A stretch of DNA of 46,411 nt, taken from contig CAZEMH010000002.1 of NCBI GenBank assembly GCA_964513365.1, positions 1 to 46,411 of the forward strand, written 5' to 3'. The notes under the pieces were generated by a model. That model had not been told where the DNA came from and ran no database searches. It saw only the letters and a list, made by a program, of their open reading frames with translations. How positions within the stretch are numbered: position 1 is the first letter of the stretch; every line of letters starts with the position of its first letter. Of this stretch, positions 6,325 through 24,274 are shown one piece after another. The position numbers and the translations under genes were made by a program. The stretch is from an uncultured Candidatus Saccharibacteria bacterium (lineage in GTDB: Bacteria; Patescibacteriota; Minisyncoccia; UBA6257).

Positions 6325-7083
6325 TTGATAAAAATGGGGAATATATTTACTAAAGCCATTAATTCTCATTTCTTTAGAACATGGAATTCAAAAATGAGTT
6401 ATGTTTTGGGTTATATCACAGCCGATGGATGTATAGCTACCGATAGAAGAAGGAAAAATAACCCCCTTACTTTAAACATAACCTCTGTGGAAAAGAAACA
6501 TCTATATAGAATCAGAAAAGCACTTAATTCCACCCATAAAATTAGTAAAAAACCAGGAGGATATTCTAATATAGCTTATCAATTTCAGGCTCGCAATCCG
6601 ATTATCACCCAAGATTTAATAAAGTTAGGTATTTTACCTAGAAAAAGTCATAATTTAGGACCGATTAAGGTTCCGAATAAATATTTTTCTGATTTTGTTC
6701 GTGGATTTTTTGATGGAGACGGAACAGTTTATATTTATAAAGTTAATGGAACGCCACAAATTAAAGCTGGTTTTGTATGTTCAAGCTTGTCTTTTATAAC
6801 AAGATTTAATCAGCAACTTTGCAAAAGTCTTAATATTTCTACAAAATCTATCCATCAGACAGTTGATAAGCGGAAAAATAGGATGACTCAATATAGTATT
6901 TATTTTTATGTTGATGATTGTGAAAAATTAGCTAATTTTATGTACGAGAATAGTTCAGTTTTATTTCTTCCTCGTAAACATAAAATCTTTAAAAAATGGG
7001 AGTCAATAAAAAGACGACATTATGTAAAACAAAATTATCCTTCAAAAGTTGGCTGGCGATTAAATGAAAAAGTTATTGCTTAA
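6325..7083 (+). CDS. Free-standing double-motif LAGLIDADG homing endonuclease
   Basis: Two LAGLIDADG-type motifs (YVLGYITADGCI and FVRGFFDGDGTV) about 100 aa apart. The ORF track starts at TTG 6325; ATG 6334 is an equally plausible start. Confidence 0.8.
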   Translation: MIKMGNIFTKAINSHFFRTWNSKMSYVLGYITADGCIATDRRRKNNPLTLNITSVEKKHLYRIRKALNSTHKISKKPGGYSNIAYQFQARNPIITQDLIKLGILPRKSHNLGPIKVPNKYFSDFVRGFFDGDGTVYIYKVNGTPQIKAGFVCSSLSFITRFNQQLCKSLNISTKSIHQTVDKRKNRMTQYSIYFYVDDCEKLANFMYENSSVLFLPRKHKIFKKWESIKRRHYVKQNYPSKVGWRLNEKVIA

Positions 7084-12410: not shown

Positions 12411-14219
12411 ATGAATAAATTAGCCAAGTCTTTTTTAATAGTGCTTCTTCTTTTTTTAGCTCTTTCTTTGTTGTTTTCCGCAATAGAAGGTAACTCTTCA
12501 AAAACAAAAGAAGTAAGTTTTTCTGAAGCAATCCAATCTTTAAAAGAACAAGAAGTAAGTAAAGTTGTAATTCATCCTAGCCATATTAATATTTTTCTTC
12601 AGGATGAAACTATTTTAGTTACAGAAAGAGAATTAAATGTTTCTTTTTTAGAAACTCTCCAAAGTTTTGGATTTTCTCCAGAAGAAATATCTGCTTTGAA
12701 TATAGAAGTTGAAGGAGACAGTACGTCAGCTATTTTTTTCACTATAATACTGCCAATACTTATTCCGATTGTTCTAATAGGATTTTTGTTGTTTTATTCT
12801 CTTCGTCGGGCTAATCAAGGAGCAATGCAAATCTTCTCTTTTTCCAGATCTAATATTAAATTATTTTCTCCTTCTAAAGATAGAATTACTTTTAAAGATG
12901 TTGCTGGATTAAAAGAAACCAAGGAAGAATTAAAAGAAGTTGTTGAGTTTTTAAAAACTCCAAAGAAATTTCATGATTTAGGAGCAAAAATTCCTAGAGG
13001 AGTTCTTTTAATGGGGCCGCCGGGATCTGGGAAGACACTTTTAGCCAGAGCAGTAGCAGGAGAGGCTAAAGTTCCTTTTTTTCATATTTCTGGGTCAGAA
13101 TTTGTAGAAATGTTTGTTGGGGTTGGAGCAAGTCGCGTGAGAGACACTTTTGCTACAGCTAAAAAAGCAGCCCCTTCAATTTTGTTTATTGATGAAGTAG
13201 ATGCTATTGGCAGGGTAAGAGGTGCTGGTATTGGTGGAGGCCATGATGAAAGAGAGCAAACATTAAATCAGATTTTAGTTGAAATGGATGGTTTTGATAG
13301 AGACACAAAAACTATTGTTATTGCAGCAACAAATAGGCCAGATGTTTTAGATCCTGCTTTATTGAGACCAGGGCGTTTTGATAGACGTGTGATTTTAGAT
13401 TTGCCTAGTATTAATGATAGAGAAAAGATATTAGAAATTCATGTTAAAGGCAAAAATCTGGCTCCATTAGTTAATTTAAGAGAAATAGCAGAACGAACTC
13501 CAGGATTTTCTGGCGCTGATTTAGCTAATTTAACAAATGAAGCAGCTATTTTAGCAGCTAGAAGGAACCAAAAAAATATTACACAGAAAGAGTTATTGGA
13601 TTCTATTGAAAAAGTTATCTTAGGGCCAGAAAGAAAAAGCAGGGTTTTAACAAAAAAAGAAAAAGAAATTACTGCTTATCATGAAGCTGGTCATGCCTTA
13701 ATATCTGCTTTACTTCCTAATACAGCCCGTGTAAGAAAGATTTCTATTATAACGCGCGGGAGAGCAGCTGGTTATACAATGCGAATGCCAACTGAAGAAA
13801 AATATATGAAAACCCTCTCAGAATTTTTAGATGATTTATGTGCTCTTTTAGGAGGATATGCTGCTGAAGAAATTAAGTTTAAAGAAATATCAACAGGCGC
13901 AGCTAATGACTTAAAAGAAGCAACAGATATTGCAAGAGGAATAGTAACTAAATACGGAATGAGTAAAAAAATAGGACCAATTTCTTTTGATAAAACAGGA
14001 GAATTGATATTTTTGGGCAGGGATATTTCCACTGAAAAGCAATATTCAGAAGAAACAGCGGCAAAAATAGACAAAGAAGTAGTCAGTATTCTTAAAAAGT
14101 GCTATAATCGTACCAAGAAATTACTTAAGCAGAACATCAATAAGCTGGAAAAAGTCACCAAAGAATTAATGAAGAAAGAAACATTAGAAAAGGAGGAATT
14201 TGAGCAATTAATAAAGTGA
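12411..14219 (+). CDS. ftsH: ATP-dependent zinc metalloprotease FtsH
   Basis: Two TM segments, AAA+ Walker [19 protein letters not shown], a second region of homology, and the zinc site HEAGHAL. The TGA stop is at 14217-14219. Confidence 0.95.
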
Positions 14220-14255
14220 TGCGCACGTAGCTCAGTGGCAGAGCGCCGCCCTTAT

Positions 14256-14437
14256 ATTAATGGTTTGTTTTAATAGCTTGATAAGGATGAAACCATTAAT
14301 ATATTAATTGTCTTTTTGTTTGTGAATCTTTGTTGGGCGTATAGCTCAGTGGCAGAGCGGTTGTCTTATAAACAACAGGTCCTAGGTTCGATCCCTAGTA
14401 CGCCCACCAAAGATTCAGAAGAGGAAACAATCAATAT
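14256..14437 (+). other. Structured intervening sequence in the anticodon loop of the outer tRNA, carrying the nested tRNA
   Basis: Hand-found helices: A 14256-14266/14290-14300 (11 bp, extendable to 14253-14303), B 14301-14311/14427-14437 (10 of 11), C 14323-14332/14408-14417 (10 of 10). Helix C clamps the leader and trailer of the nested tRNA. Confidence 0.55.
14335..14409 (+). tRNA. tRNA-Ile(TAT), complete, CCA encoded, nested inside the interrupted tRNA
   Basis: Acceptor GGGCGTA/TACGCCC, D arm GCTC-AGTGGCA-GAGC, anticodon stem GTTGT/ACAAC, loop CTTATAA, variable AGGTC, T arm CTAGG-TTCGATC-CCTAG, A73, CCA at 14407-14409. Confidence 0.85.
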
Positions 14438-14478
14438 AAGACGGTGGTCGCAGGTTCGATCCCTGCCGTGCGCACCAA

Positions 14479-14551
14479 GGGCACTTGGCGCAGTGGTTAG
14501 CGCGTCCGCTCGACATGCGGAAGGTCATAGGTTCAAATCCTATAGTGCCCA
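14479..14551 (+). tRNA. tRNA-Val(GAC) with C at position 33
   Basis: Acceptor GGGCACT/AGTGCCC, D arm GCGC-AGTGGTTA-GCGC, anticodon stem TCCGC/GCGGA, loop TCGACAT, T arm ATAGG-TTCAAAT-CCTAT, A73. No CCA. Confidence 0.75.
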
Positions 14552-14555
14552 CAAG

Positions 14556-14576
14556 ACGTCTTAAATAGGCGTTTTT
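14556..14576 (+). terminator. Probable intrinsic terminator after the ftsH-tRNA cluster
   Basis: ACGTCT (14556-14561) pairs with AGGCGT (14567-14572), including one G-T pair, with a 5-nt loop. The T-run reaches 14576. Confidence 0.4.
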
Positions 14577-14606
14577 ATTTATTTGTATGTTATAATATAA
14601 AAAACT

Positions 14607-16777: not shown

Positions 16778-17104
16778 ATGACTGAATTAAAAGTAGAAGA
16801 AATAAAGCCTGGAATGTACGTCAAGATCTCTCAAAAGATTAAAGACGGCGATAAAGAAAAAACGCAACATATAGAAGGGCTTGTAATAGCAAGAAAGCAT
16901 GGTAAAGAGTTAGGCGCTACTATTACTATAAGAAGAGTAATGGATGGAGTAGGCGTGGAATGGATATTGCCAGTTTTTTCTCCGAGAATAAAAAAGATTG
17001 AATTAGTTAGAGCTGCTCGAGTAAAGAGAGCAAAATTGTATTTCCTTAGAGATAAATCTCAGAAACAAATTCGCGCTAAATTGAAAAAGGAAACTAAAAA
17101 GTAA
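16778..17104 (+). CDS. rplS: 50S ribosomal protein L19
   Basis: 108 aa; pattern G..V.I......G.KE..Q...G.VIA....G...T.T.RR...GVGVE...P..SP.I..IE typical of L19. Confidence 0.9.
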   Translation: MTELKVEEIKPGMYVKISQKIKDGDKEKTQHIEGLVIARKHGKELGATITIRRVMDGVGVEWILPVFSPRIKKIELVRAARVKRAKLYFLRDKSQKQIRAKLKKETKK

Positions 17105-17126
17105 GAAGCAAAAAAGTTATATAAAA

Positions 17127-17137
17127 AGCCCCATCGT
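17127..17137 (+). repeat. 11-mer AGCCCCATCGT immediately upstream of a LAGLIDADG ORF (copy 1)
   Basis: Identical to 33805-33815. It ends 3 nt before the ATG at 17141. Confidence 0.8.
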
Positions 17138-17140
17138 TTT

Positions 17141-17395
17141 ATGAAGCCACTAGGTAAAGTTAAAATTAAATGGTCACCGGATTTTGCTTACGCGATAGGA
17201 TTATTAGTAACCGATGGAAATTTATCTCCGGATAATAGGCATATTACTTTTACTTCCAGAGACCTTGAATTCATTCATAAATTTCAGAAAAGCTTGAAAA
17301 TTAATTTTCATATTGGCAGAAAATCAAGTAGTTTTGAGAGCTATAAAAAGTATCATATTGTTCAAATCGAATTTGTTTGTATAGGAAGCGAATAA
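17141..17395 (+). pseudogene. Truncated LAGLIDADG homing endonuclease (N-terminal 84 aa only)
   Basis: FAYAIGLLVTDGNLSPD is a LAGLIDADG motif. The ORF stops after 84 aa and only 47 nt remain before the next tRNA, so the rest of the fold is missing. Confidence 0.6.
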
Positions 17396-17442
17396 AAATA
17401 GAGAAAACTTTAAAAATTAATAGTAAGCAATTATTAAATTAT

Positions 17443-17526
17443 GCGCGGGTGCTGTAATTGGTAGCCAGGCCAGCCTAAGGAGCTGGTGTCCGCAAGGGCG
17501 TGGAGGTTCGAGTCCTCTCCCGCGCA
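17443..17526 (+). tRNA. tRNA-Leu(AAG), type II (A at wobble position 34)
   Basis: Acceptor GCGCGGG/CCCGCGC, anticodon stem CCAGC/GCTGG, loop CTAAGGA (U33, A34 A35 G36, G37), 15-nt variable arm with GCAA loop, T arm GGAGG-TTCGAGT-CCTCT, A73. No CCA. Confidence 0.8.
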
Positions 17527-17550
17527 CCCGGATAATTAGACACTAACTTT

Positions 17551-17586: not shown

Positions 17587-17633
17587 TAAAACAGGAAAGT
17601 CGAAGAAAAATAAAATAACTATTAATTATCAAT

Positions 17634-17861
17634 ATGTCTTCATTTAAAAATAGTATTGGTGCTTTTAACAAAGAACCAAGCACAAGTCGAGGTTTAAGCC
17701 AAGGAGGTGGACGAGGACGTCAGCCAGGAGGTTTTGGTTTAGGTCCTTCGGGTTTCTGTGTTTGTCCTAAGTGCGGGGAGAAAACTCCCCATCAAAGAGG
17801 AATTCCTTGCTATCAAATTAAGTGCCCGAAATGTGGTACTCAAATGACTAGAGAAAAATAA
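17634..17861 (+). CDS. Small Gly/Arg-rich protein with a 4-Cys zinc ribbon (resembles the DUF5320-type small proteins that accompany NifX-like genes)
   Basis: 75 aa; GGGRGRQPGGFGLGPSG followed by CVCPKCG-x14-CPKCG. Confidence 0.6.
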   Translation: MSSFKNSIGAFNKEPSTSRGLSQGGGRGRQPGGFGLGPSGFCVCPKCGEKTPHQRGIPCYQIKCPKCGTQMTREK

Positions 17862-17878
17862 ATTTAATAAATAAATTT

Positions 17879-18289
17879 ATGAAGATTTGTATTACTTCTT
17901 CGGATTTAAATTTAAATTCTCCAGTAGATTCACGATTTGGCAGAGCTCAATATTTTCTTATTTTAGACGAGAAGGGGAATTTAGAAGAGACCATATCAAA
18001 TCCTGGAGTTTTAGCAAGTGGAGGAGCTGGTATTGCTGCTGCTCAAAAAATTATCGATCAAGGGGTGAAAATTCTGATTACTGGAAACATTGGACCAAAT
18101 GCTCTCGGTGTTTTAGAAACAACTAATATACAAATATTTTTATGTCCCTTTAATATTAAGGTAAAAGAAGCGTTTTTAATGTGGAAAAACGATAAATTAA
18201 CCCTGATGAAAAAACCTTCTGTTCCTGGTCATTTTGGTCATGGGTCTCCAGGCGGTCGCAGAGGGTTTAATAGAAGAGGAAGAAGATAG
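17879..18289 (+). CDS. NifX/NafY-like (dinitrogenase FeMo-cofactor-binding fold, COG1433) protein with a Gly/Arg tail
   Basis: MKICITS...VDSRFGRAQYFLILD...NPG...GGAGIAAAQKIIDQGVKILITGNIGPNA matches the family pattern. The C-terminus is GSPGGRRGFNRRGRR. Confidence 0.75.
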   Translation: MKICITSSDLNLNSPVDSRFGRAQYFLILDEKGNLEETISNPGVLASGGAGIAAAQKIIDQGVKILITGNIGPNALGVLETTNIQIFLCPFNIKVKEAFLMWKNDKLTLMKKPSVPGHFGHGSPGGRRGFNRRGRR

Positions 18290-18293
18290 AAAT

Positions 18294-19532
18294 ATGGAAA
18301 GTATACTTGGAAAAGGTCAAAAAGCAGCCATAATAGCAGGATTTACTACACTTTTTTTTGCTTTGGCTAAAGGGGTAGTCGGGTTCTTTTCCGGAAGTGT
18401 GGTTCTTTTAGCTGATGCTGTTCATAGTGGAGCTGATTCTTTTTCCACTTTTTTTGCTTGGCTTGGATTAAAAATTGCCCAAAAGAAACCCACTGAAAAA
18501 TTTCCATACGGATATTATAAAGCAGAAAATATAGCTTCACTTTTAATAGCTGTTCTGATTTTGTTTGCCGGGTATGAAATTGTTAAAGAAGGTATCAATA
18601 AAATTTTTATAGAATATCAACTGAATATTCCCTTAATCGCAGTAACTGTTGCTGCTCTAGATGCTTTAGTAATGTTTTCTATAGGAAATTATGAAGTTAA
18701 GATTGGGAAAAAGATTAATTCTCAAAGCTTAATATCTGACGGAACAGAATCAAAAATGCATATATTTTCTTCCTCAATAGTTCTTGTAGGATTATTCTCT
18801 TCTTGGTTTGGAGTTCCGTACATGGAAGGAATTATGGGTATTTTGATTTCCTTCTTTATCTTTAAGGTTGGCATTGAGTCAGTTAAAGATTCTCTATTTG
18901 CTTTAATGGATGTTTCTCCAAGCAAAGAAATGGAAGAGAAAATAAAGAAAATTTTAAGAGGTATTTCTGGACTCCGAGATTTTGATAATTTAAAATTACG
19001 AAAATCGGGCCCTTTTGTCTTTGGAGAAGTTGAAATTAAAATTGGGAAAAACGTAAATATTAAGAGAGCCTCTGAAATCTCTTCTATTGTTGAAAGAGAA
19101 ATAAAAAAGAGAATTAAAACAATAGATTCATTTTTAGTTACTATCTCTTCCTATCAAACCAAAAAACAAAAACTTTGTATTCCGATAAAAGAAGGCAAAG
19201 ACCTTGATTCTAAAATATCAAATCATTTTGGGAGAGCCGAAAAATTTATCTTTATAGAATTAGAAAGCGGGAAGATTAGAAATTATTACTTAAAAGATAA
19301 CCCTTATAGAGAAAAAGAAATAAGGGCTGGCTTGGATGCTTCTCTTTTTGTAATAAAGGAGAAAATTGACTCTATTATAACCAAAGAAATGGGTCCGATA
19401 TCTTTGCATACCCTAAGAGATAACATAGTGGATGTTTATAAAGGAGAAGGGCTGAAAGTAAGAAAAATTATTGAAAACTTTTCTGCTGGTAAATTGAAAA
19501 TTTTAAAAGAAGCGACAAGAGAAAAAACTTAA
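18294..19532 (+). CDS. Cation diffusion facilitator (CDF) metal transporter fused to a C-terminal NifX-like domain
   Basis: CDF TM core (LLADAVHSGADSFST..., FPYGYYKAENI), a CDF cytoplasmic domain, then about 120 aa (nt 19170-19529) with KLCIPI...ISNHFGRAEKFIFIEL...NPY of the NifX-like pattern. I prefer the MESILGK start (ATG 18294) over ORF-track 18234, which overlaps the previous gene. Confidence 0.75.
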   Translation: MESILGKGQKAAIIAGFTTLFFALAKGVVGFFSGSVVLLADAVHSGADSFSTFFAWLGLKIAQKKPTEKFPYGYYKAENIASLLIAVLILFAGYEIVKEGINKIFIEYQLNIPLIAVTVAALDALVMFSIGNYEVKIGKKINSQSLISDGTESKMHIFSSSIVLVGLFSSWFGVPYMEGIMGILISFFIFKVGIESVKDSLFALMDVSPSKEMEEKIKKILRGISGLRDFDNLKLRKSGPFVFGEVEIKIGKNVNIKRASEISSIVEREIKKRIKTIDSFLVTISSYQTKKQKLCIPIKEGKDLDSKISNHFGRAEKFIFIELESGKIRNYYLKDNPYREKEIRAGLDASLFVIKEKIDSIITKEMGPISLHTLRDNIVDVYKGEGLKVRKIIENFSAGKLKILKEATREKT

Positions 19533-19542
19533 TTTTGAAATT

Positions 19543-20397
19543 ATGAAAAATTTGTTTCAAAAGATCCTGGATAATACTAGAAAAGCTCAAAAAATTGTTA
19601 TTACAGGAGGCAAGGGAGGAACAGGAAAATCAACAGTTGCTGTCTTAATGGCCGCTGAATTATTAAGAAAAGGGAAAAAAGTAATTCTCTGTGATTGCGA
19701 TATTGAATGCCCAAATGATTATTTACTGACGGGCCAAAAATTAAAAAAACCGGTAAAAAAAGTTTATGCTGAGTTTCCAAAATTAATTAAAAAAAAATGC
19801 ACCAAATGTGGATTATGTGTTAAAACTTGTCGGAGTAACGCTATTTTTCAAGTACCTGGTCAGTATCCAATTTTTATTAAAAACTTATGTTCTGGTTGTG
19901 GAGCTTGCTGGGCAGTTTGTCCATTTGGAGCAATTAAACCTCAAAAACAAGAAATAGGTCAAATATATTATAATAAAATCAAAAATTTAGATTTGATTAC
20001 TGGAGTAGCGAACCCAGGCATAGAAGAAACAGGGCCAGTGGTAAAAGAAGTAAAAGAATTTACTCTAAAATTTGCCAAAAAGATTAAAGCGGATATAGTT
20101 TTATTTGATACAGCAGCTGGTACTCATTGTCCAGTAATCAATGCTCTCCTCAATACTGACCTTGCTTTTGCTGTTACCGAGCCTACTCCAATGGGTGCCT
20201 ATGATTTGAATTTAGTATTGAGTTTGTGTAAAAAATTAAAAATTCCTGCTAAAATTATTTTAAACCAAGCAGATTTAGGTAAAAAACAAGAAATTAAAAA
20301 AATTGCTAAAAAATACAAAGTAAAAATTGGAAAAGAAATTTCTTATTCAAGAGAAATTGTTAAAGCTTATTATAGAGGGAAACTGTTAAATTTCTAA
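19543..20397 (+). CDS. MinD/Mrp-superfamily P-loop ATPase with inserted 2x[4Fe-4S] ferredoxin domain (COG1149 type), copy 1
   Basis: Deviant Walker A GGKGGTGKST, two cluster motifs CTKCGLCVKTC and CSGCGACWAVCP, then the remainder of the ParA/MinD fold. Confidence 0.8.
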   Translation: MKNLFQKILDNTRKAQKIVITGGKGGTGKSTVAVLMAAELLRKGKKVILCDCDIECPNDYLLTGQKLKKPVKKVYAEFPKLIKKKCTKCGLCVKTCRSNAIFQVPGQYPIFIKNLCSGCGACWAVCPFGAIKPQKQEIGQIYYNKIKNLDLITGVANPGIEETGPVVKEVKEFTLKFAKKIKADIVLFDTAAGTHCPVINALLNTDLAFAVTEPTPMGAYDLNLVLSLCKKLKIPAKIILNQADLGKKQEIKKIAKKYKVKIGKEISYSREIVKAYYRGKLLNF

Positions 20398-20400
20398 AAC

Positions 20401-21285
20401 ATGAGAAATGAAAAATTGAAATTAGTAATAGTTTCAGGTAAGGGAGGAGTAGGAAAGTCAATGCTGAGCTCGGCCTTAGCAATGCTCTTTGCAAAAGATT
20501 TCAAGGTAATAGCGGCTGATTGCGATGTTGATGCGCCTAATTTAGCTATTTGGCTAAACGAAATAGGAAATTGGGATAAAATTGAAAAAATAAGTGTTTC
20601 TGAAAAACCTGTAATTGACAACAGTAAATTAACCCAAAAAGAAGCTAAATTGTGTGTAGAAAAGTGCAAATTTAATGCCTTGGAAGTAAAAAAAGGAAAG
20701 TTAAAATTGAATCCTTTTTTATGCGAAGGATGTGGAGCTTGCGAAATTTTTTGTCCATCTGGAGCGGTAAAAATGAAGCCGGTAAAAAACGGAGAAATAA
20801 AAACAAAAAAAACAAAATACAATTTTACTTTAGTTTCCGGACAACTTTATCCGGGAGAGACAGGTTCTGGAAAGATGGTTACAAAAATTAAACAGCGAGC
20901 GGAAAAACTTAAAGGAAAATTAATGTTAATTGATTCTGCTCCAGGAACCGGTTGTCCGGTTATTGCTTCTCTTCAAGATGCAAACTTCGCTATTTTAGTA
21001 ACCGAACCGACTCCTTCTGGGTTTTCAGATTTAAAAAGAGTTTTGGAAGTAGTTAATCACTTTAAAATTTCTTGGAGATTGGTAATAAATAAATGGGATA
21101 TCAATTCTCCATTGAGTAATAAAATTGAAAAATGGGCTGGTAAAAAAATTTTAGGTAAGATATCTTACGACAAAAAGATTTTTAAAGCAATTGCCAATTT
21201 GACGCCAATTCTAGAAACCAATTTAAATGTTAAAAAAGAAATAATTCAGATTTTTAATAAATTAAAAATTAATTTTAAATGTTAA
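20401..21285 (+). CDS. MinD/Mrp-superfamily P-loop ATPase with inserted ferredoxin domain (COG1149 type), copy 2
   Basis: SGKGGVGKSM Walker A. CVEKCKFNAL (degenerate) and CEGCGACEIFCP motifs. It starts 3 nt after copy 1. Confidence 0.8.
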   Translation: MRNEKLKLVIVSGKGGVGKSMLSSALAMLFAKDFKVIAADCDVDAPNLAIWLNEIGNWDKIEKISVSEKPVIDNSKLTQKEAKLCVEKCKFNALEVKKGKLKLNPFLCEGCGACEIFCPSGAVKMKPVKNGEIKTKKTKYNFTLVSGQLYPGETGSGKMVTKIKQRAEKLKGKLMLIDSAPGTGCPVIASLQDANFAILVTEPTPSGFSDLKRVLEVVNHFKISWRLVINKWDINSPLSNKIEKWAGKKILGKISYDKKIFKAIANLTPILETNLNVKKEIIQIFNKLKINFKC

Positions 21286-21357
21286 ATTATGCCACCTTTG
21301 TGTGGTACTGCTAATGTCAGGTAGTTTTAATCAAAAACAATTTTAGTACTCATTTTA

Positions 21358-23016
21358 ATGAAAAAAGATTTCTCAATTTTAGTAGGAGGAGCAGCAGGAG
21401 AAGGATCTAGAAAAGCCGGACTTATGATAGCCAAATTATTCTCAAATCTAGGTTATAGGATTTTTATTTATGATGATTACCAATCTTTAATTAGAGGTGG
21501 TCATAGTTTTTCCCAGATTAGAGCTTCTAATAAAAAAATCTTAACTCATCGTAAAAAAATAGATTTTCTTCTGGCCCTAGATGAAACTACCATTAGAAAA
21601 CATCAGGCTGATTTAGACAAAAAAGGAGTAATTATTTATAACAGTGATAAGATCTCTATTAAGAACGAGAACGCAATAGGAATAGCCACGGAAACAATTG
21701 TTAAAAAAGCCGACGGGGTTTCTATAATGGGAAATACTGCCTTTATAGCCGGATTTGCAAAAATTATCGGTATTAATTGGAAAATCTTAGAGAAACTTTT
21801 TAAAAAAGAATTTAAAAAATCTAAAGGGGTAAACCTAAAAATAGCCAAGAAAGCCTTTAATGATACAAAAAACTTAATTAAGATTAAAAAGTTGAATCAG
21901 AAATCACTACCTGTTTTGACAGGTAATGAAGCCCTTTCTCTAGGAGCGGTTAAGGCCGGACTTGATTTTTACATTGCTTATCCCATGACTCCAGCTACTG
22001 GAATTTTACATTATTTAGCAGCTCGCAAAGAGGATTTTGGTATCGCTGTAGCTCAGTTGGAAAATGAAGTGGGTATTGTAAATGCTGCTATTGGGGCATC
22101 TTACACTGGTGCTAGGACTATGGTTGGGACTTCAGGAGGCGGATTTGCTTTAATGGTAGAAGGACTTAGTCTAGCTGCTCAAAGCGAAATACCTTTAGTA
22201 ATAGTAGAAAGCCAAAGGATGTCTCCTGCCACTGGAGTGCCAACTTATAGCGGCCAGGGCGATTTATTATTTGCCTTGACTGCTGGACATGGCGATATTT
22301 TGAGGTTTGTCATTGCTCCCGGCGACGCCGATGAGGCTTGTTTCTGGGCAGGAAAAATTTTAAATCTTTCCTGGAAATATCAAACCCCTTCTATTTTATT
22401 AATAGATAAGGAAATTTCTGAAAGCACATTTAGTTTTGATGAAAATATTTTAAATAAGATTAAATATGAAAAACCTTTAGTTTGGAATAAAGACGGGCAA
22501 TACTTAAGATATAAAGATACAAAAAATGGAATTTCTCCTCTTGCTTTTCCCGGAGAAAAAAATGTAATTTCAAAAGCAAATAGTTACGAGCATGATGAGT
22601 TTGGTATTACCGTGGAAGACGAAAAAAGCACGGAAAAAATGCAGAATAAAAGATTAAGAAAATTTAAAGAGATGAAGAAAGAGGTAAATAAGCTTGAGGC
22701 AATTAAAATTTATGGCAACAAGTATGCTAAAAAAGCAATTATTGTTTGGGGCTCAACTAAAGGACCGGCGAAGGAAGCAGCTGAAAAATTAGGAATTAAA
22801 ATGATTCAACCCATTATTCTTGAACCGTTTCCAAAAAAGCAAATGAAGGAAGCATTAAGAGGGGTTAATAAATTAATTTTGTTAGAAACAAATGCATTAG
22901 GGCAAATGGAGAAAGTCTTAAATTGTTATGGGATAAAAATTGATAGAAAGATTTTGAAATATAATGCTAAACCATTTCTTCCTGAAGAGATAGAAAAAAA
23001 ATTATCTAAATTCTAA
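21358..23016 (+). CDS. 2-oxoacid:ferredoxin oxidoreductase, fused gamma-alpha subunit
   Basis: N-terminal gamma-type domain (VGGAAGEGSRKAG...IRGGHS), then an alpha N-terminal domain (LTGNEALSLGAVKAGLDFYIAYPMTPAT). Confidence 0.85.
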   Translation: MKKDFSILVGGAAGEGSRKAGLMIAKLFSNLGYRIFIYDDYQSLIRGGHSFSQIRASNKKILTHRKKIDFLLALDETTIRKHQADLDKKGVIIYNSDKISIKNENAIGIATETIVKKADGVSIMGNTAFIAGFAKIIGINWKILEKLFKKEFKKSKGVNLKIAKKAFNDTKNLIKIKKLNQKSLPVLTGNEALSLGAVKAGLDFYIAYPMTPATGILHYLAARKEDFGIAVAQLENEVGIVNAAIGASYTGARTMVGTSGGGFALMVEGLSLAAQSEIPLVIVESQRMSPATGVPTYSGQGDLLFALTAGHGDILRFVIAPGDADEACFWAGKILNLSWKYQTPSILLIDKEISESTFSFDENILNKIKYEKPLVWNKDGQYLRYKDTKNGISPLAFPGEKNVISKANSYEHDEFGITVEDEKSTEKMQNKRLRKFKEMKKEVNKLEAIKIYGNKYAKKAIIVWGSTKGPAKEAAEKLGIKMIQPIILEPFPKKQMKEALRGVNKLILLETNALGQMEKVLNCYGIKIDRKILKYNAKPFLPEEIEKKLSKF

Positions 23017-23022
23017 TATTTT

Positions 23023-23868
23023 ATGGTTAAAAAGAACATAAATCTAGATACTTATGCTAAAAACACCTGGTGTCCTGGTTGTGGTAATTTTGGGATTTTA
23101 GCTGCTTTAAAAATGGCGATTTCTTCTTTATTGACAAGCGGATTACCTAAAGAAAATATAGTGGTTGTAAGTGGAATAGGCTGTAGCTCAAAAATTATTG
23201 ATTATCTCAACCTAAATAGTTTTTCTTCTTTACACGGAAGGCCAATTACTTCAGCTGAAGGAATAAAATTAGGAAATCCAAATCTTAAAGTTATTGTCTG
23301 TGCCGGAGACGGTGGGACCTATAACGAAGGGATTTCTCATTTAATTCATGCTGCCAAAAGAAATATTGATATTACAGTTTTAATTCACAATAACAGGAAT
23401 TTTGCTTTAACTACCGGTCAATTCACCGCTACTTCCCCAGAGGGGTTTAAAGGAAAATCTACTCCCGAAGGAAGCATGGAAGAACAATTTGATCCCATAA
23501 AAATAATGTTAGCCTCCAAAGCTACTTTTATAGCTCGGGGGTATTCTGCTAAAGCAGAACATCTGAAAAATTTAATTTTGAAAGGAGTTAACCATAGAGG
23601 ATTCTCTTTTATTGATATTTTACAACCTTGTGTTTCATTTTTTGATACATATAAGTTTTATAATGAACGGGTTTTTGAAATGAAATCTGAAAATTTAACA
23701 TCAGAGAAAGAAGCTCTGAAAAAAATTAATCAATGGGGATACGGACAGAAAGGAATGAAAATTCCCATTGGTATATTTTATAAAATCCAAAAACCAACTT
23801 ATGAAAAACGATTACTAAAAGGCCTGATTCCTTCAAGAAGAAAGAAGAAGATTAAGGTAACTATCTAA
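23023..23868 (+). CDS. 2-oxoacid:ferredoxin oxidoreductase, beta (TPP-binding) subunit
   Basis: WCPGCGNFGIL and GDGG...NN..FALTTGQ TPP/Fe-S motifs. Confidence 0.85.
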   Translation: MVKKNINLDTYAKNTWCPGCGNFGILAALKMAISSLLTSGLPKENIVVVSGIGCSSKIIDYLNLNSFSSLHGRPITSAEGIKLGNPNLKVIVCAGDGGTYNEGISHLIHAAKRNIDITVLIHNNRNFALTTGQFTATSPEGFKGKSTPEGSMEEQFDPIKIMLASKATFIARGYSAKAEHLKNLILKGVNHRGFSFIDILQPCVSFFDTYKFYNERVFEMKSENLTSEKEALKKINQWGYGQKGMKIPIGIFYKIQKPTYEKRLLKGLIPSRRKKKIKVTI

Positions 23869-23911
23869 CGCATAACTTAAATTAAACATACTATAAAAAT
23901 AAAATATAATT

Positions 23912-24190
23912 ATGTATAAAATAAATAAACAAAAGTGTACTGGTTGTCAAATTTGTGTTCGGAGTTGCCCCGGAGCGACCAAGATAGGAACCGATGGCAA
24001 AGCAGAGGTTATTAGTCAAGAAAAGCTTGAGCAATGTGGTGGAGAAAATCTTTGTCCAATGGGGGCAATAGAAAAAGATGGATCATTTTCTTATCAATCC
24101 CCATTATCTAAAGGAAAAGGATTAGGCAAAGGGAGAGGTCCAGGTAGGGCTAAAGGAATGGGAAGAAAAAGACGAGGAGTAAGAGGTTAA
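23912..24190 (+). CDS. Small ferredoxin with a C-terminal Gly/Arg/Lys tail
   Basis: CTGCQICVRSCP full motif plus a distal C-x5-CP (CGGENLCP), which suggests a single cluster. The tail is GKGLGKGRGPGRAKGMGRKRRGVRG. Confidence 0.7.
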   Translation: MYKINKQKCTGCQICVRSCPGATKIGTDGKAEVISQEKLEQCGGENLCPMGAIEKDGSFSYQSPLSKGKGLGKGRGPGRAKGMGRKRRGVRG

Positions 24191-24274
24191 ATTATTGTAA
24201 GGCAGTAAATATTAATAAATAATTCTTGATTTTTTCAGAAAAATATGATAAAAGGAAATAGAAGTTTTTAAATT

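Follow-up and report, generated by a model that had tools for sequence, protein, structure and literature searches.

The window analysed here, positions 1 to 46,411 of contig CAZEMH010000002.1 of an uncultured Candidatus Saccharibacteria bacterium (assembly GCA_964513365.1; UBA6257 in GTDB), contains at 14221-14477 one tRNA gene inside another: two halves of a tRNA-Ile(UAU) gene are separated by 182 bp that hold a complete tRNA-Ile(UAU). We think it likely that a site-restricted cassette bringing its own replacement tRNA disrupted the resident gene, and that the inner copy is the one that works and the outer halves are a young relic. Genomes and metagenomes of Paceibacterota (candidate phyla radiation, CPR) yielded about 20 further nests or relics of nests; in every one the anticodon is split at position 35|36, and the deepest has three levels.

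The nested tRNA-Ile(UAU) locus

The outer 5' part (GCGCACG-TA-GCTC-AGTGGCA-GAGC-G-CCGCC-CTTA) and the outer 3' part (TAA-GACGG-TGGTC-GCAGG-TTCGATC-CCTGC-CGTGCGC-A-CCA) are matched by profiles of the corresponding tRNA halves (nhmmer, E = 2e-7 and E = 3e-7 respectively; coordinates are in Table 1). Joined in silico they are called by ARAGORN as a canonical 75-nt tRNA-Ile(UAU) in which the acceptor stem pairs at 7/7 positions and the anticodon stem at 4/5, the exception being a C.A mismatch that is also present in the functional orthologue of L005 and in the inner tRNA of L012 (L numbers denote the loci compared). The joined junction reads GCCGCCCUUAUAAGACGGUGG and its counterpart in the inner tRNA GGUUGUCUUAUAAACAACAGG. 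The inner gene is called as tRNA-Ile(tat) by ARAGORN and has the cloverleaf, score and conservation of a functional tRNA. An 18-nt D region is identical in the inner and outer tRNAs (chance expectation 0 matches), and the minimum free energy fold of 14221-14477 (257 nt) consists of two nested cloverleaves (-91.6 kcal/mol, z = -5.8), with 0/200 shuffles folding as stably as the native sequence. The original prediction had described the nest, an outer tRNA beginning one nucleotide after the ftsH stop codon, seven acceptor pairs across the gap, a joined loop with a UAU anticodon, a second complete tRNA and the shared D region, and all of these stand on inspection of the sequence, on the ARAGORN and Rfam calls and on the assemblies described below. 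It had also ended the outer halves after U36 (14255/14438), which we have revised. Because TATA occurs at both junctions the boundary between exon and insert is ambiguous over about 4 nt; other nests place it after A35 (CTTA|...|TAA, that is 14254/14437 in the window), and the junctions of L081 (CTTA|AAAC ... GGATA|TAC) set the insertion point after nucleotide 35. TA or TATA is found at every junction, but with a palindromic target, TTATAA, this does not amount to evidence of a target-site duplication; a blunt insertion at 35|36 fits all of them, including L081.

The nest has the same layout in three contigs (from ENA, JGI and Logan) that derive from different samples (ENA ERZ1742239, JGI 3300033150 and SRR6823441) and all encode the exact FtsH protein. 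Fusion of two tRNA-Ile alleles of co-occurring strains during assembly had been one of the options of the original prediction, and the window does come from a metagenome-type assembly, where assemblers can be misled by tRNA repeats; since three independent assemblies agree, across three samples and pipelines and with strain-specific differences in one of them, such an artefact can hardly be credited and was rejected. The 107 bp of arm and hairpin sequence are moreover foreign to the normal flanks of either allele, and partial or related nests are present in dozens of further assemblies, including many other metagenome-assembled genomes.

The origin of the two copies was traced with 80 Patescibacteria/Paceibacterota loci obtained by an FtsH scan of species-representative genomes. 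The gene order ftsH, tRNA-Ile(UAU), tRNA-Val is kept in 68/80 of these, and most close relatives have an uninterrupted tRNA-Ile after ftsH. The joined outer tRNA is identical at 74/75 positions to the uninterrupted tRNA-Ile after ftsH in L005, and the blastn alignment of L005 with the window breaks exactly at 14256/14435; from this match and clean break the outer tRNA is taken as the resident, ancestral gene, and its 5' part would be a relic of that gene. The inner tRNA is identical at 75/75 positions to the resident tRNA-Ile of L010, whose genome is only ~77% identical to the window, and closer relatives hold other tRNA-Ile alleles; it is therefore an allele from elsewhere, and is presumed to be the working gene. 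A separate observation on this gene cluster is that the relatives L004-L017, with FtsH proteins 81-93% identical, have tRNA-Ile(UAU) genes with at least 7 different anticodon stems on similar acceptor and T arms, and that their tRNA-Val(GAC) genes are also split into unrelated alleles. The tRNA alleles of this cluster seem to be often replaced.

A terminal motif, TATTRATNGTTT, occurs in the region at 14255 (plus strand), 14290 (minus), 14302 (plus) and 14425 (minus) only, with zero or one mismatch, and these four copies divide the insert into two inverted-repeat modules in series, 14255-14301 and 14302-14436, with terminal inverted repeats TATTAATGGTTT / AAACCATTAATA and TATTAATTGTCT / AAACAATCAATA. 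The 3' terminal motif ATCAATA|TAA is common to the window, L012, L014, L104 and L137. Module 1 contains helix A of the original prediction, which is a perfect 14-bp inverted repeat (14253-14266/14290-14303). The cassette arms of L012 are homologous to module 1 as well as to the arms of module 2 (z ~6 against shuffles; module 1 scores 59, shuffles 31 +/- 4), so that helix A is an internally deleted cassette copy and not an intron helix. This reading is fitted by strain L002, in which a 6-nt deletion in one strand of helix A is not compensated; the pairing in helix A had been correctly recognised, but it is not a conserved structural helix. Helix B (10/11 pairs by direct reading of the sequence) and helix C, which belongs to a 22-nt, 91% complementary repeat (14320-14341/14399-14420), were both confirmed and make up the arms of module 2. 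The arms flanking the inner tRNA of the window form 11/12 in-register pairs flush with its acceptor stem and fold with it as one long helix. In 10/18 nested tRNAs the leader pairs in register with discriminator plus trailer at 11/12 positions or more, with unrelated sequences, as compared with a mean of 4.1/12 for un-nested tRNA-Ile genes (p = 5e-7); helix C therefore co-varies between nests, as a test for compensatory changes had been meant to reveal. In a strand test of the insert helices the sense fold was better in 11/16 (Wilcoxon p = 0.2), and as they are about equally stable on both strands they may be DNA-level palindromes as much as RNA helices. A G.U bias on the transcribed strand, hinted at by 7 nests, was not upheld by this larger test. 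The earlier description of the insert as highly ordered agrees with the folding z-score, but the order is better read as that of two tandem inverted-repeat cassettes than as an intron fold.

Compared with the window, the outer 5' half and module 1 of L002 together show 3 substitutions (2 C>T in the outer 5' part and 1 change in the helix A loop) in addition to the 6-nt deletion, where ~0.5 changes are expected. The JGI contig comes from this variant strain, 99.2% identical overall to the window, and it shows no change in the inner tRNA, in the outer 3' part or in tRNA-Val; across L001-L003 the inner tRNA is identical.

The favoured sequence of events would run as follows. The resident tRNA-Ile(UAU) downstream of ftsH would have been split between nucleotides 35 and 36 by a 182-bp insertion consisting of two tandem members of one inverted-repeat cassette family, of which the first (module 1) would have lost its cargo and become a bare hairpin and the second (module 2) would carry a foreign-allele tRNA-Ile(UAU), with complementary arms that extend the inner acceptor stem. 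Transcription may read through from ftsH, the arm helix keeping the inner cloverleaf apart from the homologous outer halves, and RNase P and 3' processing would free the inner tRNA, possibly after RNase III has cut the arm helix. The inner tRNA would then do the AUA decoding and the outer halves would be non-functional, though still young. Later recombination between the directly repeated halves could delete one or both outer halves, deeper nests could arise by re-invasion of the inner copy, and the cassette, confined to this anticodon loop, would spread between genomes via recombination at the homologous site.

Table 1. Features of the nested locus and its immediate neighbours in the window
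Feature	Position	Strand	Remarks
ftsH	12411..14219	+	Conserved upstream neighbour, from the open reading frame list; stop codon 1 nt before the outer tRNA
Outer tRNA-Ile(UAU), 5' part	14221..14254	+	Acceptor 5' strand, D arm, anticodon-stem 5' strand, loop C32-A35
Cassette module 1, 'empty' hairpin (helix A)	14255..14301	+	TATTAATGGTTT...AAACCATTAATA; perfect 14-bp inverted repeat
Cassette module 2, left arm (inner tRNA leader)	14302..14334	+	Pairs with 14407-14436
Inner tRNA-Ile(UAU)	14335..14409	+	CCA encoded; ARAGORN; Rfam RF00005, 74.4 bits
Cassette module 2, right arm (trailer)	14407..14436	+	Overlaps the CCA; 3' end ...AAACAATCAATA
Outer tRNA-Ile(UAU), 3' part	14437..14477	+	U36-A38, anticodon-stem 3' strand, variable loop, T arm, acceptor 3' strand, A73, CCA
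tRNA-Val(GAC)	14479..14552	+	Conserved downstream neighbour; ARAGORN and Rfam, 70 bits

Nests and relics in related genomes

Among the species-level loci, tRNA halves enclose a complete tRNA-Ile(UAU) in L012, L014, L015, L020 and L081, and one-sided relics are present in L059, L065 and L082, so that nests and relics make up 8/68 of the species-level loci that contain tRNA-Ile(UAU). A pattern scan of metagenome contigs adds L087, L090/091/105, L098, L102, L104, L106/132/133, L116, L121, L129 (a one-sided relic), L130, L137 and L139; the same kind of scan found no nests in viral contigs. All follow a common plan, in which an outer 5' part ending CTTA is followed by the modules and then by an outer 3' part starting TAA or TAC. 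Each nest has one to three modules, which are bounded by TAT...ATA or similar inverted repeats and abut with no spacer between them; a complete tRNA-Ile(UAU), read in the direction of the outer gene, lies in one of them. In L130 there are three levels, X[Y[Z]], with halves matched at each; the nesting order varies, L098 being Y[X] and L102 Y[Z], and L015 has two stacked 5' halves. A tRNA-Ile interrupted by a hairpin only, with no inner tRNA, was not seen among the surveyed loci. That a cargo tRNA with the same anticodon is always present, and never a hairpin alone, is what would be required of a non-splicing insertion in an essential gene.

The inner tRNAs are canonical in 19/19 distinct cases. 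The outer levels are 11 intact and 10 defective of 21 (a tally subject to the detection bias considered below), against 0/19 defective inner copies (Fisher p = 5e-4), and so do not show purifying selection comparable to that on the inner ones. The defects are of several kinds. The acceptor stem is mismatched in L012, and L090 and L102 each combine halves of different alleles (L090 with 7/7 acceptor and 2/5 anticodon-stem pairs, L102 with 4/7 and 5/5). L014 has 52 nt inserted in the D loop as well as a changed anticodon, and the T loop is mutated at the outermost level of L130. A half is missing at the outermost level of L015, in the second 3' half of L020 and in L059, L065 and L129. Of two redundant copies either could decay, and that the outer ones alone do so argues against an outer gene that can be matured.

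Movement of the cassette between genomes is suggested by L102 and L130, which share a ~150-nt block, 100% identical, that takes in the outer D-stem and anticodon stem, the arms and the inner tRNA. Outside it the flanking genomes are 71-79% identical, and the outer tRNAs differ in their distal parts. This is the pattern of transfer by homologous recombination with short co-conversion tracts. Unequal crossing-over and deletion between directly repeated halves would likewise lead to the tandem expansions in L139 and L106 and to the one-sided relics. When 21 arm and hairpin queries were compared by blastn with all loci the matches lay in nests only: no arm or hairpin copy was found outside tRNA anticodon loops in the 46-kb window or in ~1.3 Mb of related loci, and the cassette therefore behaves as a site-restricted, homing-type insertion and not as a dispersed transposon. 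Homing-type behaviour is seen both in the constant 35|36 site of all the Ile nests and in the lateral transfer together with flanking sequence (L102/L130).

Some related structures were observed in passing. Nest-like loci of tRNA-Val(UAC) occur in L066 (minus strand 6140-5830), L071 (6430-6745) and L025 (minus strand 9520-9300), where a complete tRNA-Val lies between complementary arms CCCCGTYAGATTT / AAATCTRACGGGG after a 5' half ending TTTA; the outer copies are much decayed, the 3' junction could not be located, and the loci have been parsed in part. A 20-bp GC-rich palindrome, CCTGCCTGCCGGCAGGCAGG, is identical in L025 (9472-9491), L066 (5940-5959), L041 (187-206) and L080 (6006-6025), and in L025 and L066 it lies inside loops of decayed tRNA halves (D arm, variable region). 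Relic halves in L014 and L066 have other small hairpins within their D and T loops. Directly after the tRNA-Ile of L042 (6150-6255) there is an apparent circularly permuted tRNA fragment, consisting of a 3' half (T arm, acceptor, CCA), AAA and a 5' half, the outer ends of which (GGGCGGG / CCCGCCC) are complementary. In L011 an 80-nt hairpin (6634-6714) lies between tRNA-Ile and tRNA-Val, and its ends (GGGCACT...AGTGCC-A) resemble the acceptor strands of window-type tRNA-Val with the interior replaced.

Competing explanations

If the outer tRNA were matured, the nest would be a new type of intron or a cis-encoded split tRNA, from which RNase P and RNase Z excise the inner tRNA and the outer pieces are trimmed and ligated (e.g. 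by RtcB). We regard this as unlikely; that the outer tRNA is alive, its arm-held pieces being ligated to a second tRNA-Ile(UAU) by a protein-dependent bacterial splicing or split-tRNA route in which a tRNA gene would itself be the intron, appears quite unlikely. Maturation would account for the perfectly canonical tRNA that the outer halves of the window give on joining, for the matched halves of outer tRNAs that differ from the inner one (L020, L081, L098, the middle level of L130 and L137), for arms able to hold the outer pieces together in the manner of the complementary leader and trailer of archaeal split tRNAs, and for an unpaired junction that leaves exactly the 7 anticodon-loop nucleotides. 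It does not account for decay in one direction only, since redundant copies should decay either way and 10/10 of the clearly defective ones are outer and 0 inner, nor for the mosaic or missing outer halves in L012, L090, L102, L059, L065 and L129, nor for the constant presence of a same-anticodon cargo tRNA, as a non-splicing insertion needs. The insert helices do not favour the transcribed strand, and the loss of part of helix A in the sister strain without compensation points the same way. Nor were known intron types recognised. In the region 14150-14600 cmscan at E <= 10 gave no intron family, only two contiguous tRNAs and chance hits, and a scan of 15 other nest loci at Rfam gathering thresholds gave tRNAs only and no ribozyme or other family; the group I core (RF00028) and the group II models were unmatched at the window locus and at the 15 nests, and the insert is only 182 nt long. 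A terminal omega-G is absent from the window insert, whose last nucleotide is A or T wherever, within the TATA ambiguity, the boundary is put (...CAATCAATA|TAAG), and in the other nests too the insert ends in A or T, never in G. Enumeration of bulge-helix-bulge (BHB) motifs (two 3-nt bulges 4 bp apart within +/-9 nt of the junctions) gave none in 8/13 nests and candidates at inconsistent positions in the remainder, with no motif conserved at the junctions, and in its intron mode ARAGORN does not call the outer tRNA in its genomic form, with halves 182 bp apart. These scans agree with the original prediction that the insert fits neither group I introns nor a BHB substrate, and the new intron or processing pathway that it had offered as one option gained no support.

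The modules might instead be ordinary miniature inverted-repeat transposable elements (MITEs), e.g. of the TA-targeting IS630/Tc1-like kind, mobilised by a transposase in trans and having captured a tRNA by chance, their apparent site-specificity arising from a TA/TATA preference and selection. Terminal inverted repeats (TAT...ATA), modules abutting in series with TA or TATA at each junction, and the occurrence of both empty and loaded versions all have this look. We nevertheless hold it quite improbable, given the confinement of arms and hairpins to tRNA anticodon loops, a TATA target that is itself palindromic and junctions that fit blunt 35|36 insertion equally well, and a shared block in L102/L130 that includes flanking tRNA and so indicates homologous recombination rather than transposition. 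No transposase gene was found near any nest; neither integrase nor transposase was seen there or in the 6.7-kb block after the tRNA-Leu of the window, which contains metabolic genes only. A role at the RNA level, with the outer fold serving as RNase P/Z punctuation between the ftsH mRNA and the tRNAs or controlling the dosage of the inner tRNA, would suit an outer tRNA so close to ftsH with intact acceptor and T arms, and also the many outer copies that retain 7/7 acceptor pairs in spite of a mismatched anticodon stem (L090). It is very unlikely all the same, as the nest is absent from most relatives, the inner tRNA already gives equal punctuation, and outer halves go missing readily (L059, L065, L129) or no longer form a sound acceptor stem (L012, L102).

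Disruption of the resident gene by a tRNA-bearing insertion, the inner copy replacing a dead outer one, had also been among the options of the original prediction and is the best supported of them, by the allele matches to L005 and L010 and by decay of outer copies only. Several points weigh against it. The window outer tRNA is intact, pairing 7/7 in the acceptor stem, with D and T arms of canonical form and a CCA that is encoded, so that nothing in this copy proves it dead, and both C>T changes in L002 preserve pairing, as G.U. Detection in metagenomes needed an intact outer 5' half, which biases the tally of intact against decayed copies. Several nests (L104, L106, L139) have inner and outer copies that are the same; such identity calls for in-situ duplication or gene conversion and is not what the mere arrival of a foreign allele would give. 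Nor was an enzyme or a mechanism of insertion found, and the nest encodes no enzyme. Finally, the view of the genome is one of 46 kb, and a further tRNA-Ile(UAU) gene or a tRNA-Ile(CAU)/TilS system could lie outside it.

Comparison with known insertions, and neighbouring genes

Full-text literature searches for tRNA genes that are nested, interrupted or disrupted, in CPR or in bacteria generally, gave no description of such genes, the nearest published cases being insertions in CPR rRNA genes (PMC11270868) and archaeal tRNA introns (PMC4090602, PMC10714607). We regard the nests as a variant of tRNA-gene-targeting mobile insertions, of interest to both the mobile DNA and the tRNA fields. Integrative elements such as phages and islands insert at tRNA anticodon loops and bring a copy of the displaced tRNA segment, and their integration sites in tRNA genes have reportedly been surveyed by Williams in 2002. 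Like these, the cassette has a symmetric anticodon stem-loop as target, brings tRNA sequence that keeps a working gene and leaves an orphan fragment, and the relic in L059 (full tRNA, spacer, 3' half) looks exactly like an attL/attR pair. Unlike them, the nest insert is 0.1-0.2 kb long and encodes no integrase or other protein, carries a whole tRNA and not a 3' segment, with both target halves orphaned, is bounded by inverted and not direct repeats, and nests recursively; it is on these grounds (the whole tRNA, the two orphaned halves and the missing integrase gene) not an integrase island.

Mobile group I introns are known in the anticodon loops of bacterial tRNA-Leu UAA, tRNA-fMet, tRNA-Ile CAU and tRNA-Arg CCU (PMC3984707). 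The nests resemble them as bacterial anticodon-loop insertions at one homologous site with homing-like lateral spread that includes flanking exon sequence (L102/L130), but have no Rfam ribozyme core or terminal G, are too short once the tRNA is subtracted, and bring a replacement gene instead of splicing, with decay of the interrupted copies. In archaea the pre-tRNA-Trp intron encodes a box C/D RNA. With archaeal introns and split or permuted tRNAs the nests share an RNA gene within the anticodon region, complementary leader and trailer sequences that join the halves, mobile-unit behaviour and, in L042, a permuted fragment nearby; they differ in having no conserved BHB, in a site at 35|36 rather than 37|38 and in outer copies that are not maintained. 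The nests are, moreover, those of bacteria, a group not known to possess the splicing endonuclease. Correia-type MITEs and rRNA intervening sequences (for CPR, PMC11270868) are also small hairpin inserts, co-transcribed and at the tips of stem-loops, and some are removed by RNase III without re-ligation, but the cassettes are confined to one tRNA site and have a complete tRNA as cargo. A last comparison is with phage T4 SegB, a free-standing homing endonuclease of a tRNA gene cluster (PMC2330249). As in SegB-type clusters, tRNA alleles are replaced between relatives, a conserved ORF lies against tRNA-Ile in many relatives, and in the window a LAGLIDADG_3 fragment adjoins tRNA-Leu; here, by contrast, no nuclease is encoded in or beside the nest, and searches with the conserved ORF gave no support for an endonuclease.

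If a cassette of this kind did disrupt the resident gene, a protein-less, site-restricted insertion would be able to invade the anticodon of an essential tRNA gene and make good the damage with the working gene copy that it carries, without splicing. This would be a third strategy besides those of self-splicing introns and inteins and of integrases that rebuild their tRNA target. It would explain the sharp differences between tRNA-Ile(UAU) alleles of close Paceibacterota, in the anticodon stems above all, and tRNA genes nested up to three deep. The nests are also a trap for annotation, as tRNA finders miss the orphan halves and there is a risk of mislabelling them as intron-containing or split tRNAs, and they offer a concrete test site for tRNA ligation in bacteria, in the form of a read spanning 14254|14437.

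The genes flanking the nest of the window are ftsH and a glycosyltransferase gene, and no open reading frame (ORF) was found in the insert itself. The FtsH protein, identical in the three assemblies, has the Pfam domains FtsH_ext, AAA and Peptidase_M41. The conserved ORF mentioned above encodes 224 aa with an N-terminal helix-turn-helix (HTH) domain and a LAGLIDADG-like motif; it lies between ftsH and tRNA-Ile in 12/80 loci, has thousands of database homologues and is absent from the window. Its stop codon is the tRNA's own U8-A9-G10 (TAG). The family has >2600 homologues, all in CPR (e.g. L004, 5896-6570; also L006, L011, L025, L038, L042, L053, L071, L073 and L143-L154), and paralogues are placed likewise before tRNA-Val(GAC) (L058) and near tRNA-Gly (L057). 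Pfam detects the HTH only; protein and profile searches against PDB sequences gave no match, an AlphaFold model (predicted local distance difference test score 85) gave no significant Foldseek match, and hhalign against the LAGLIDADG_3 fragment family aligned the motif with a probability of 0.07%. No test thus supports an endonuclease fold or the idea that the ORF encodes a LAGLIDADG homing endonuclease.

Further downstream, a 6.7-kb block (~17600-24250) follows directly after a tRNA-Leu gene; it contains genes for a cation-efflux protein, two Fe-S P-loop ATPases, 2-oxoacid:ferredoxin oxidoreductase subunits and a ferredoxin, with no integrase seen. L005, L010 and L012 have no such block here, and their synteny with the window resumes at 24270. 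The tRNA-Leu itself (17442-17529, plus strand; 47 bits in a focused Rfam scan) has the anticodon AAG (A34), which is GAG in relatives, and the alignment with L002 is at its most divergent over the stretch just upstream of this gene (17099-17230). At 46 nt upstream of the tRNA-Leu, and 3 kb downstream of the nest, ends an 84-aa ORF (17141-17395, plus strand) with a classic LAGLIDADG motif, FAYAIGLLVTDGNLS, which scores 22.7 bits on Pfam LAGLIDADG_3 (cutoff 22.5); as all 18 of its homologues are fragments of 48-141 aa, it looks like a decaying homing-endonuclease gene.

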